From: Escherichia coli
GTDB taxonomy: Bacteria > Pseudomonadota > Gammaproteobacteria > Enterobacterales > Enterobacteriaceae
Length of the DNA: 64,000 bases
Direction: 5' to 3' (one strand)
NCBI RefSeq assembly: GCF_044324785.1
Contig: NZ_CP172127.1
Position numbers and translations under genes: made by a program. The notes below the pieces were generated by a model, which was given only the letters and a program-made list of their open reading frames with translations, searched no databases and was not told where the DNA came from. Positions 11,168 through 20,402 of this stretch are shown here, piece after piece (positions within the stretch are counted from its first letter, which is position 1; each line of letters opens with the position of its first letter).

Positions 11168-12209
11168 ATCAGATTTCGGGTAAGTCTCCCCCGTAGCGGG
11201 TTGTGTTTTCAGGCAATACGCACGCTTTCAGGCATACCTGCTTTCGTCATTTTGTTCAGCGCTCGTACCAGGGCCATAGCCTCCGCAACCTGACCATCGT
11301 AGTCACGCAGCGTCAGTGAACCCCCGAACAGCTGTTTTACCCGGTACATCGCCGTTTCCGCTATCGAGCGACGGTTGTAATCTGTTGTCCATTTCCACCG
11401 CGCATTACTCCCGGTCATTCGCTGATTAGCCACTGCACGGTTACGGTCTGCATATTCACCGGGCCAGTAACCCGCACCTTTTCGGGGAGGGATAAGCGCG
11501 CTGATTTTCTTACGCCGCAGTTCATCGTGACATAGCCGGGTATCGTAAGCGCCATCGGCGGCGGCTGACCTGATTTTCCGGTGGGTTTGCCGGATTAACC
11601 CGGGGAAGGCCTCTGAGTCCGTAACGTTGTTCAGCGACAGGTCAGCGCAGATGATTTCATGTGTTTTACTGTCAACGGCGAGATGCAGCTTACGCCAGAT
11701 ACGGCGGCGTTCCTGGCCATGCTTTTTGACTTTCCACTCGCCTTCACCGAAGACCTTCAGCCCGGTGGAATCAATTACCAGGTGTGCGATTTCACCCCGG
11801 GTGGGCGTTTTGAAACTGACATTAACCGACTTTGCCCGCCTGCTGACACAGCTGTAATCCGGGCAGCGTAGCGGAACGTTCATCAGAGAAAAAATGGAAT
11901 CAATAAAGCCCTGCGCAGCCCGCAGGGTCAGCCTGAATACGCGTTTAATGACCAGCACAGTAGTGATGGCAAGGTCAGAATAGCGCTGAGGTCTGCCTCG
12001 TGAAGAAGGTGTTGCTGACTCATACCAGGCCTGAATAGCTTCATCATCCAGCCAGAAAGTTATGGAGCCACGGTTGATGAGGGCTTTATTGTAGGTGGGC
12101 CAGTTGGTGATTTTGAACTTTTGCTTTGCCACGGAACGGTCTGCGTTGTCGGGAAGATACGTGATCTGATCCTTCAACTCAGCAAAAGTTCGATTTATTC
12201 AACAAAGCC
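11153..12209 (-). mobile_element. IS903-like insertion sequence (IS5 family), 1057 bp
   Basis: Perfect 18-bp terminal inverted repeats GGCTTTGTTGAATAAATC at 11153-11170 and (reverse complement) 12192-12209; element length 1057 bp; single transposase ORF. The flanking 9-mers GACTATAAC and GTTACCCGC differ, so there is no target-site duplication. Confidence 0.85.
11209..12177 (-). CDS. IS903-type transposase
   Basis: 322-aa product (M)KDQITYLPDNADRSVAKQKFKITNWPTYNKALINRGSITFWLDD... recognised; probable TTG start. Confidence 0.85.
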   Translation of the reverse strand: MKDQITYLPDNADRSVAKQKFKITNWPTYNKALINRGSITFWLDDEAIQAWYESATPSSRGRPQRYSDLAITTVLVIKRVFRLTLRAAQGFIDSIFSLMNVPLRCPDYSCVSRRAKSVNVSFKTPTRGEIAHLVIDSTGLKVFGEGEWKVKKHGQERRRIWRKLHLAVDSKTHEIICADLSLNNVTDSEAFPGLIRQTHRKIRSAAADGAYDTRLCHDELRRKKISALIPPRKGAGYWPGEYADRNRAVANQRMTGSNARWKWTTDYNRRSIAETAMYRVKQLFGGSLTLRDYDGQVAEAMALVRALNKMTKAGMPESVRIA

Positions 12210-13339
12210 GTTACCCGCTCTTCAATCTCATGCAATTGATTATGCAATATCGCATTTTCATCCTTTTGCCCGGCTAATGAGTGGGTAAGCGTCTCAACTT
12301 CTTGCTGTAATGCGGAGCTCCTGGCCTGGAAAAACTCAAGTTCCTTCAGAACCCGATCTTTAAGAGAGAATAGGTACTCTTCAGCTGACAGCGTGGTGAT
12401 CCTATGATGGGCGGCGGCGATAAATTCATCATAAAAATCATCACTCTTTGCATCCAGGGCAACAACAAACTCTTTCACTTGCTGATAAAACGGGTGAAAT
12501 GCCGGACCAGAAATCGTGTTTAAATGCCACTCAAGGAACACGACAACATAGTTTTTATAATCTCTGAGACGGTGTTCCATCATCCCCTGCTGACAGATAA
12601 ACGCTTTAAGCGCCACCAATGCTTCAACAGCACAGCGGTGCGACTCTGCTCGCGTGGCGGATAGGGATTCACTACGGTTGATGGTATGAGAAATTAACGT
12701 TTCATTTAAGACCGAAATTCTGTTCGCCATGAGCATAAATGCGCAGACGAAGAAAAGATCGTTGGTCGTCCTGATTTCCTGAAAGCGAAGCTGATGACTA
12801 GTAATAAATTGACGCCTGAGAAGCTTGTCCCATGGCCACCAGACAAAGGTGCGGAAAAAGTCAGAGGGAATATCCTGGGATGAAAAAAACTTGAGATCAG
12901 GTAACAGCTCCTGGCGCACTGACCACGGCATCGGAGCATAAACCTGCAAGGCGGGATCAAAAGACTGGCTGCGACAGATAACGACATCCGCTTGTATATC
13001 GCTAGCACGTGCGTACATGCGCTCCAACATCATGTTATCGACATAATCGTCGTCATCAAGAAAAATAACGTACTCACCGGTAGCAGCATCCAACCCGATG
13101 TTTCTTGAGCCTCCCCCACCAAGATTTGTCGTGTTGTTAATGACTCTAATTCGTGAATCAGTTTCAGCCAGCGCCGAGACAATCTCTAAGGTATTATCGT
13201 CAGAACAATCGTTGACAATAATGATTTCAATATCATTTAATGTTTGCGACAAAACAGTGCTCAATGTGTCGGAAATATATCCCGCCGCATTGTGCACAGG
13301 GATAATAACGGAAACAGCTATACTCTCTTTTTCAGACAT
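12179..13339 (-). CDS. Family-2 glycosyltransferase with C-terminal coiled-coil region; 3' end fused to IS903 inverted repeat
   Basis: N-terminal GT2 motifs (VSVIIPVHNAAGYISDTLSTVLSQT, DDDD); C-terminal heptad-rich region; last 13 codons (ERVTALLNKSNFC*) are IS903 IR sequence. Confidence 0.65.
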   Translation of the reverse strand: MSEKESIAVSVIIPVHNAAGYISDTLSTVLSQTLNDIEIIIVNDCSDDNTLEIVSALAETDSRIRVINNTTNLGGGGSRNIGLDAATGEYVIFLDDDDYVDNMMLERMYARASDIQADVVICRSQSFDPALQVYAPMPWSVRQELLPDLKFFSSQDIPSDFFRTFVWWPWDKLLRRQFITSHQLRFQEIRTTNDLFFVCAFMLMANRISVLNETLISHTINRSESLSATRAESHRCAVEALVALKAFICQQGMMEHRLRDYKNYVVVFLEWHLNTISGPAFHPFYQQVKEFVVALDAKSDDFYDEFIAAAHHRITTLSAEEYLFSLKDRVLKELEFFQARSSALQQEVETLTHSLAGQKDENAILHNQLHEIEERVTALLNKSNFC

Positions 13340-13460
13340 GCAATCACCTTGACGCTTAGCTTATAAACGTAATTATATTTATTTATGGGTAGCGTTTAAT
13401 TTGTAGGTTGCCAGTTTATTAAGGATGGGTAAGATGAAAGCGACTGAGCTTCATCAAAAA

Positions 13461-19314: not shown

Positions 19315-20093
19315 TACAAAATCTCTGCAAATCGATATTTTAATTTATTAAAAATACTCAGGCCCACAATTGTCAGGACTAAACCTGTAATGTAAAGGAT
19401 TGAAATATATTCATAATTTAAGACGCCATCCATGAACAGCTGCCGCCAGCTGAGGATCATGCTTGCCAGAGGATTATAGGTAATAATCCAGCTAAATTTT
19501 TCAGGAATCATATCTGACGCATATAATATCGGCGTGCAATAAAACATGAGCATGATACCAAGGCTGACAAATCGCTCTAAATCCCTGAAGAACAGATTTA
19601 GCGTAGAAAATATGATTGAAATACCAAATGTAAAAATCACCTGACCAAGCGCAATAATTGGTACGCCCCAGAGCCATGAGAGCGATGGACGCATACCATA
19701 CACGAACAGGAATGCAATAATCACAGGAATTGTACACAAGAAATGTACCCCTTCCATCATGACATTACTCAATGGAATAACTGAGCGCGGAAAAACTGTT
19801 TTTTTGATTATTTGCGCATTGGCTATAAACGAAAACAAGGAATTTGTCGCCGAGCTGGCAAACCATTGCCACGGAAATAAACCGGTAATCAAGAAAAGGG
19901 TATAATTCGGGATCTGCACTCGCATAACGAGCTTAAAAATGAAATAATATATCATTGCAAAAAGCAGTGGATTCGCAATTGACCATAAGTAACCAAATAC
20001 GCTGCTTTTATAACGTACCTTTAAATCTTTGTTTGTTATAACAACAAGAAGATCAAACAAATACCCTATATTATACTTCATTTTTATACTCAT
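19314..20093 (-). CDS. wzm: O-polysaccharide ABC transporter permease (ABC-2 type)
   Basis: 259-aa multi-pass membrane protein; stop overlaps wzt start by 1 nt. Confidence 0.85.
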   Translation of the reverse strand: MSIKMKYNIGYLFDLLVVITNKDLKVRYKSSVFGYLWSIANPLLFAMIYYFIFKLVMRVQIPNYTLFLITGLFPWQWFASSATNSLFSFIANAQIIKKTVFPRSVIPLSNVMMEGVHFLCTIPVIIAFLFVYGMRPSLSWLWGVPIIALGQVIFTFGISIIFSTLNLFFRDLERFVSLGIMLMFYCTPILYASDMIPEKFSWIITYNPLASMILSWRQLFMDGVLNYEYISILYITGLVLTIVGLSIFNKLKYRFAEIL

Positions 20094-20390
20094 AAATTAT
20101 TCTACAAAAAATTCCGTACGTAATATGTATCAAACAGAATTATCGATAAGATCTGCTGTGCTCGAGAGACGAACAGCTATTCCCATAAACAAAGACCAAT
20201 TGTAACATCATTTTGCACAAGCAATATGTAAACAATCTTTCCTGCGCATTAGCACTCCGGAATCGGAGATGATCGCTAACCTCAGTAACCGCTGAATGAA
20301 AATGTGATTCTCGTGGAAGATACATAAACCATCCTTTAAGATTGTAAATAAAATGTTAAATCGAACAATGAGTTTATTCTAAAATTCAGA

Positions 20391-20402
20391 CACGCTACCG
20401 CC
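20391..20402 (-). promoter_or_regulatory. ops element (GGCGGTAGCGTG) for RfaH-dependent antitermination, upstream of wzm
   Basis: Plus strand CACGCTACCGCC at 20391-20402 is the exact reverse complement of the 12-nt ops consensus; about 300 nt upstream of wzm on the coding strand. Confidence 0.65.

Follow-up and report, generated by a model that had tools for sequence, protein, structure and literature searches.

A probable D-galactan I operon of rfb(O2a) type and Raoultella-like origin in a serW-type island of Escherichia coli

Escherichia coli contig NZ_CP172127.1 (RefSeq assembly GCF_044324785.1) contains, in the 64,000-nucleotide (nt) stretch that was analysed and is referred to here as the window, an operon related to the Klebsiella rfb(O2a) locus for the O-polysaccharide D-galactan I, the repeat of which is [->3)-beta-D-Galf-(1->3)-alpha-D-Galp-(1->] (Galf, galactofuranose; Galp, galactopyranose). 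An open reading frame (ORF) scan of the window delineates seven ORFs, all on the minus strand and co-directional, which span 12179-20093. With their leader, and in the direction of transcription, the features are as follows:

20094-21021, minus strand: leader/promoter region that travels with the operon; 21021 is the upstream limit of the segment common to Raoultella and one plasmid
20391-20426, minus strand: JUMPStart-like block with an exact ops element, GGCGGTAGCGTG, at its end (20391-20402), a putative RfaH loading site
19314-20093, minus strand: wzm, permease of an ATP-binding cassette (ABC) transporter, 259 amino acids (aa), or 255 aa from the second ATG, the start chosen by RefSeq
18574-19314, minus strand: wzt, ABC-transporter ATPase, short form of 246 aa with no carbohydrate-binding module
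16667-18559, minus strand: wbbM, bifunctional galactan-I polymerase, 630 aa, N-terminal DUF4422 plus GT8 modules
15494-16648, minus strand: glf, uridine diphosphate (UDP)-galactopyranose mutase, 384 aa
14607-15497, minus strand: wbbN, GT2 galactofuranosyltransferase of the adaptor, 296 aa
13461-14606, minus strand: wbbO, GT4 galactopyranosyltransferase of the adaptor, 381 aa from a GTG start, 377 aa from an ATG start
12179-13339, minus strand: kfoC-like GT2 gene cut by IS903B, 386 aa, made of 377 native codons (12210-13339) and 9 contributed by IS903B

The array is tightly packed: wzm and wzt overlap in the sequence TAATG, glf and wbbN overlap in ATGA, and the remaining intergenic gaps measure 0-18 nt, except for 121 nt ahead of the kfoC-like gene. 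The GC content is 0.38-0.44 over 13-21 kb, compared with 0.50-0.57 in the flanks. An earlier annotation of the window, made from the letters alone (hereafter the original prediction), had described an AT-rich array of translationally coupled genes; the ORF scan bears out the positions, orientation and sizes that it gave, the packing and the two overlaps agree with coupling, and the composition is as described. The genes from wzm to wbbO are mandatory for a Klebsiella O1/O2 locus, kfoC standing outside this set (PMC7556023). All six of these ORFs are intact in the window and equal in length to their Raoultella planticola counterparts.

The exact ops element that was predicted to precede the array is indeed present, 298 nt ahead of the wzm ATG. 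No second exact copy occurs in the 64 kb, for which the chance expectation of matches with one mismatch at most is 0.28. One ops copy stands upstream of wzm in four of the four loci compared, namely those of E. coli SMS-3-5, K. pneumoniae and two plasmids, and the 36-nt block in which it lies, CGCATTTTGGTTGCGATAGCCAATGGCGGTAGCGTG, does not differ among E. coli, R. planticola and K. pneumoniae, although the leader of the last has otherwise diverged. A promoter scan returned 29 sigma-70-like sites, against 22.2 +/- 4.3 in shuffled sequence, that is, no excess. Note that a dodecamer with one mismatch to ops, GGCGGTAGCGTT, occurs at 56673-56684 on the plus strand within a 173-aa ORF; it is probably there by chance.

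As had been proposed with the original prediction, each product was compared by pairwise BLASTP with K. pneumoniae proteins, the reference being the rfb region of strain 176. Wzm is 92% identical to RfbA, Wzt 95% identical to RfbB in an end-to-end alignment (the RefSeq entry for the identical Wzt protein also carries the name RfbB), Glf 85% identical to RfbD/Glf, WbbN and WbbO 65% and 79% identical to their namesakes over the full length, and the kfoC-like GT2 54% identical to the glycosyltransferase that follows wbbO. Identities thus range from 54 to 95%, and from 65 to 95% for the six essential proteins. WbbM aligns over residues 2-576 with the crystallised K. pneumoniae WbbM (6U4B), with 1081 bits and 78.8% identity. 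Pfam and profile searches confirm the predicted domains: WbbM contains DUF4422 (residues 5-243, E = 1e-70) and Glyco_transf_8 (residues 279-545, E = 1e-43), and WbbN and WbbO belong to GT2 and GT4, respectively, the Pfam families being also called on the R. planticola orthologues. Glf scores 321.1 bits with TIGR00031, above the cut-off of 303.75. By the NCBIfam equivalogs for "galactan export", Wzm (56 versus 380 bits) and Wzt (184 versus 400 bits) fall far under the cut-offs; since these models appear to have been built for another galactan system, which we take to be mycobacterial, the low scores were not counted against membership, and Wzm and Wzt were judged instead by direct comparison with the K. 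pneumoniae proteins. Altogether, the locus has the features of gene content and order that define rfb(O2a): a Wzm/Wzt transporter with a short Wzt, a two-module WbbM, Glf, and WbbO with WbbN, arranged in the order wzm-wzt-wbbM-glf-wbbN-wbbO(-kfoC) behind ops/JUMPStart. The proposed match to the K. pneumoniae O1/O2a rfb cluster therefore stands for order, sizes and domains. One point of the original prediction has to be amended: the last GT2, taken to be an extra gene, corresponds to kfoC, which comes seventh in the Klebsiella O1/O2 locus, and is truncated here by IS903B. Compared with the K. pneumoniae O1/O2 variant 1 locus, which shares the seven genes, their order and orientation, the 246-aa Wzt, the WbbM architecture and the ops/JUMPStart block, the window copy differs by this truncation, by a nucleotide identity of 73-76% and by its location in a serW island instead of between ugd and his.

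The downstream boundary of the operon is formed by an insertion sequence (IS) and a remnant of hsdM:

11153-12209, minus strand: IS903B, 1057 bp, terminal inverted repeats GGCTTTGTTGAATAAATC, both 18-bp copies present
9758-11152, plus strand: hsdM remnant, 465 native codons of 523, marking the deletion that took out wbbY and wbbZ

The element, named IS903B by RefSeq and encoding an IS5-family transposase (357 bits in a profile search), interrupts the kfoC-like gene at one end and hsdM at the other. The hsdM remnant is 100% identical to residues 1-465 of SMS-3-5 HsdM. In the kfoC-like protein, 376 of 377 residues match a 413-aa plasmid copy, the two sequences diverging beyond that point, and the R. 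planticola copy is 434 aa long; the catalytic domain (residues 10-140) is intact and the coiled-coil tail is lost. The truncated gene is dispensable for galactan I. Compared with SMS-3-5 (O19:H34), the window lacks 8985 bp between hsdM and IS903B (9990-18974 of the SMS-3-5 island region), a segment that contains IS1, wbbY, wbbZ and IS remnants. The gene wbbY encodes the galactan-II (O1) polymerase and wbbZ a terminal pyruvyltransferase (PMC4237132); both were reported in SMS-3-5 at 99% identity by Hsieh et al. 2014 (PMC4237132). A tblastn search of the window with SMS-3-5 WbbY and WbbZ found neither gene, its sole hit being a 32% similarity between the glycosyltransferase domains of WbbY and the kfoC-like GT2. 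The pair of genes that defines Klebsiella O1 is therefore absent, and the window copy should direct the synthesis of O2a-type galactan I alone, with no galactan II (O1) cap, which would make it O2a-type where SMS-3-5 is O1-type.

The segment common to other replicons, 12210-21021 (8812 bp), can be followed as a module well beyond this strain. At a native canonical site, the closest relative found is the ugd-hisIE rfb locus of R. planticola (GCA_006757685.1, contig VIIV01000006.1), which is 96.4% identical in nucleotides over the entire length of the module, its 930-bp leader included, and 94-100% identical in protein (Wzm 99.6%, WbbN 97%, WbbO 98%). That locus reads ugd, an epimerase gene, wzm to GT2, an acyltransferase gene and hisIE; it differs from the window copy by its full-length GT2 (434 aa), by the downstream acyltransferase and by having no flanking IS elements. 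In a protein search with WbbN, the product of the most diverged gene, R. planticola (97%) is followed by Klebsiella electrica (90%), the K. michiganensis/K. oxytoca group (about 71%) and K. pneumoniae (about 65%). R. planticola is thus the likely donor lineage as judged from these comparisons. K. pneumoniae was also considered as the source and was rejected in favour of a Raoultella-like origin, its locus being only 73-76% identical in nucleotides compared with 96.4%.

On plasmids of Citrobacter portucalensis, Enterobacter spp. and E. coli (e.g. pSTW0522-27-3, pRHBSTW-00872_2 and pJH112-3KPC, the last in PMC12307366), the module is 99.6-99.8% identical in nucleotides from wzm to GT2, and one plasmid aligns with 12210-21021 as a single block at 99.65%. 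The plasmid copies differ by other flanking IS elements and a longer GT2 (413 aa); some add wbbYZ and an acyltransferase gene, or gtrA/gtrB-like genes. Many complete E. coli genomes, SMS-3-5 among them, contain the module at 100% identity. Of 5426 complete E. coli genomes, 54 have its six-gene core (on the chromosome in 48 and on a plasmid in 6), with at least 99% identity in 53 of the 54; wbbY and wbbZ are complete in 34 carriers and not complete in 20. The hsdM-IS903B interval, seen in 6 of these 20, differs in length from genome to genome, which would point to several independent deletions, and the hsdM/IS903B junction of the window, taken as one piece, was found in no complete genome. E. 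coli BY63 and TUM1881 carry the same module and the same IS903B/GT2 junction in another island that has a different integrase. The island of TUM1881 runs from dsdC to tRNA-Arg/yfdC (the argW/dsdC site), and the module (9749-19896 of the retrieved locus) is bracketed by two IS903B copies in opposite orientations, in the manner of a composite transposon. Taken together, these comparisons indicate a cassette bounded by IS elements, with Raoultella as its probable source, that turns up in islands linked to transfer RNA (tRNA) genes and on plasmids. Note that the right-hand IS903B of TUM1881 lies about 300 bp upstream of wzm.

The island that houses the operon in the window is delimited by the following features:

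21030-23336: IS3-family transposase remnant (21030-21455) and ISL3 element (transposase 21717-23336), which bound the module upstream
30831-32039, minus strand: P4-type tyrosine integrase, integrase domain model NF007246, 184 bits
32200-32213 (14 nt) and 32375-32392 (18 nt), plus strand: right-end attachment (att)-like repeats, fragments of the serW 3' end as defined by the intact serW of SMS-3-5 (16375-16462 of the SMS-3-5 segment compared)

Positions 1-32259 of the window are collinear with SMS-3-5 at 99.98-100% identity, apart from the missing 8985 bp, and the two strains share the IS903B/GT2 junction, the integrase and the att end. Each serW 3'-end fragment is followed by the serW terminator, and chromosomal clpA starts at 32676. 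ARAGORN and Rfam found no tRNA gene in the window; the tRNA linkage of the island, which the original prediction had asserted, consequently rests on the att fragments and on SMS-3-5, where the order is infA, serW, island and where the intact serW ends 423 bp before the position equivalent to window position 1, window positions 1-1500 being 100% identical to SMS-3-5. The integrase, the serW 3' fragments and clpA, read together with SMS-3-5, make a serW-type island likely, the tRNA gene then lying just outside the window. The operon is located between serW and clpA, off the usual galF-gnd-his site as had been stated; its departure from the canonical ugd/gnd-his position is a positional difference and not a biochemical one. 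At the right end, the serW fragment and terminator are duplicated about 180 bp apart (32196-32440, plus strand), flanking a GC-rich insert of about 120 bp (32260-32378) that is not present in SMS-3-5; the duplicated fragments may be the scar of a second integration/excision event at the att site.

Given the gene content, intactness, homology, mobility and location described above, we consider, with a probability of roughly 80%, that 12210-21021 represents a mobile copy, bounded by IS elements, of an rfb(O2a)-type operon directing D-galactan I synthesis, and that it stems from an R. planticola-like ugd-his locus and now resides in the serW island. Expression, polymer structure and display alongside a resident O antigen can be predicted by analogy, every step of the mechanism being drawn from the characterised Klebsiella system. 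Host WecA would form N-acetylglucosamine (GlcNAc)-pyrophosphate (PP)-undecaprenol, to which WbbO would add Galp and WbbN Galf, giving the Galf-Galp-GlcNAc adaptor. The two-module WbbM would then extend the disaccharide repeat, Glf supplying UDP-Galf, and Wzm/Wzt would export the chain; with a short Wzt devoid of a carbohydrate-binding module, export is expected to be coupled to elongation. Ligation to lipid A-core would be the task of host WaaL. From the conserved ops element, RfaH probably suppresses premature termination and so keeps transcription of this AT-rich operon processive. Host compatibility is established in principle, since a plasmid with the rfb(O2a) locus yields O2a lipopolysaccharide in E. 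coli DH5alpha (PMC10629545). Moreover, the wbbYZ-positive E. coli O19 strain F8188-41 displays galactan II (PMC4237132), which requires an O2a acceptor.

Several considerations weigh against this interpretation. Expression and polymer chemistry in the window strain are deduced from its sequence, and identities of 65% for WbbN and 79% for WbbM with the K. pneumoniae enzymes would be compatible with a difference in linkage or modification. Native sequence reaches no further than about 930 bp upstream of wzm, where it meets an IS remnant, and the original promoter might therefore be missing; moreover, H-NS often silences AT-rich acquired DNA in E. coli. Finally, galF-gnd, wecA, waaL and rfaH lie outside the window, hence host compatibility is assumed for this strain.

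The island locus could also be the sole functional O-antigen pathway of the strain, i.e. a replacement and not the second pathway of the original prediction, expressed beside a resident Wzx/Wzy O antigen. The window leaves room for such a replacement, the galF-gnd region being outside it, and so does the serology of SMS-3-5, a strain typed serologically as O19 (PMC4237132), the galF-gnd cluster of which shows 100% identity to the cluster of a strain called CE-O153H30, so that the island product may dominate serology. However, SMS-3-5 has an apparently intact Wzx/Wzy cluster at galF-gnd, in which wzy and a wzx ORF of 392 aa are found, and Kelly et al. 2023 report that most such isolates keep a serotype-specific rfb cluster at the usual site, near his/gnd (PMC10629545). 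We therefore regard replacement as unlikely, though it keeps some weight. The horizontally acquired second pathway holds for SMS-3-5; for the window strain, "second" is extrapolated from its relatives. Note that RefSeq flags SMS-3-5 wzx (NC_010498.1, 1049057-1050235) as an incomplete pseudogene plus a hypothetical protein. Antigen replacement through a wzx pseudogene was considered for SMS-3-5 and rejected: the ORF of 392 aa is intact and has the length of the TW11681 flippase, which is annotated as intact, and the TW11681 galF-gnd locus is essentially 100% identical in nucleotides to that of SMS-3-5. The pseudogene flag is an annotation artefact.

We judge it improbable that the cluster is intact but silent cargo, either because IS elements picked it up with its native promoter left behind or because H-NS silences it, and makes no surface contribution in the window strain. 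Such silence would fit the IS remnants that bound the module 930 bp upstream of wzm, a number of sigma-70-like sites no higher than in shuffled sequence and the GC content of 0.38-0.44, but many E. coli genomes from different hosts have all six ORFs intact and 100% identical, the same 930-bp leader with its ops has been retained from Raoultella, and the galactan II displayed by the O19 strain F8188-41 depends on a galactan-I acceptor. A different Galf/Galp polymer, for instance a Raoultella-specific or modified variant instead of plain galactan I, could be imagined from the low identities of WbbN (65%) and of the GT2 (54%) to K. pneumoniae and from the additional acyltransferase of the native Raoultella locus and one plasmid, but it is very improbable given that WbbM, which sets the repeat unit, shows 79% identity to the enzyme of known crystal structure and has both domains, that the window has no acyltransferase and a truncated GT2, and that wbbY, which depends on an O2a acceptor, accompanies the module in 34 of the 54 genomes.

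The identification of the locus as a mobile rfb(O2a)-type operon is correct but already known, identical copies and their likely meaning being in print. According to Kelly et al. 2023, E. coli wbbYZ often has a complete rfb(O2a) cluster in its neighbourhood, the position of rfb(O2a)/wbbYZ in the chromosome differs among isolates, and such isolates may co-express two O antigens, a possible cause of the cross-reaction between O19 and Klebsiella O1 (PMC10629545). A 2025 report describes a Klebsiella-like O-antigen cluster on a blaKPC-2 plasmid of C. portucalensis (PMC12307366). What the window adds is the wbbYZ-deleted (O2a-only) configuration, the truncation by IS903B and the likely Raoultella-like source. 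A comparable arrangement is the Salmonella T1-antigen locus (STM0719-0726), phase-variable according to the title of the paper on it, which is likewise an accessory ABC-transporter-dependent polysaccharide locus off the main rfb site and in which Glf, WbbN and WbbO make the same Galf-Galp-GlcNAc-PP-undecaprenol adaptor; it differs by a GlfT2-like polymerase in place of WbbM and by an additional ribofuranan.

In E. coli, Citrobacter and Enterobacter, the module is in circulation on IS-bounded cassettes, in tRNA-linked islands and on conjugative plasmids, some of which also bear a carbapenemase gene. The O1/O2 epitopes are therefore not specific to one genus, and in-silico O-typing based on galF-gnd can miss a second O antigen; both points are already in the literature. 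Klebsiella O1/O2 antigens are leading vaccine and antibody targets. We put forward, as a possibility that we hold at less than even odds, that deletions next to IS903B recurrently strip wbbY and wbbZ, switching carriers from a Klebsiella-O1-like to an O2a-like product, and that this island product, not the galF-gnd cluster, sets the serology of the carrier. Were this the case, cross-reactivity to Klebsiella O1/O2 vaccines and phage sensitivity would also be determined by the island in carriers, and the typing as "O19" of strains with other resident clusters would fit.

Other parts of the window deserve brief mention. Within the island, a 607-aa ORF of GC content 0.36 (26854-28677, minus strand) lies between a P4-like block (DUF3987 primase, helix-turn-helix gene and integrase) and a gene resembling inovirus Gp2. 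Searches of NCBIfam, PADLOC and Pfam returned nothing for it, even at E <= 10, and its position resembles the cargo/defence slot of a P4-like satellite. Well beyond the island, in the chromosomal backbone, a 2-kb patch with a GC content of 0.31 harbours a 600-aa ORF (53796-55598, minus strand), presumably between amiD-like and art-operon-like genes as judged from ORF sizes and the E. coli K-12 map. NCBIfam and PADLOC returned nothing for this ORF, and residues 368-469 give a weak pentapeptide-repeat match (E = 2e-4). A 341-aa ORF at 23852-24926 (minus strand), beside IS66 tnpB and ISL3 elements, has a PADLOC PrimPol match of 425 bits; RefSeq annotates its SMS-3-5 equivalent as part of a "TOTE conflict system" primase, fragmentary and frameshifted. 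At 8269-8505 (minus strand), Rfam detects an IS102 small RNA (71.6 bits versus a gathering score of 46), a match that straddles the 5' end of a 973-aa Ag43 ORF (annotated start near 8250) and the spacer before a GTPase gene, an arrangement that presumably resembles that of the CP4-44 prophage of E. coli K-12.

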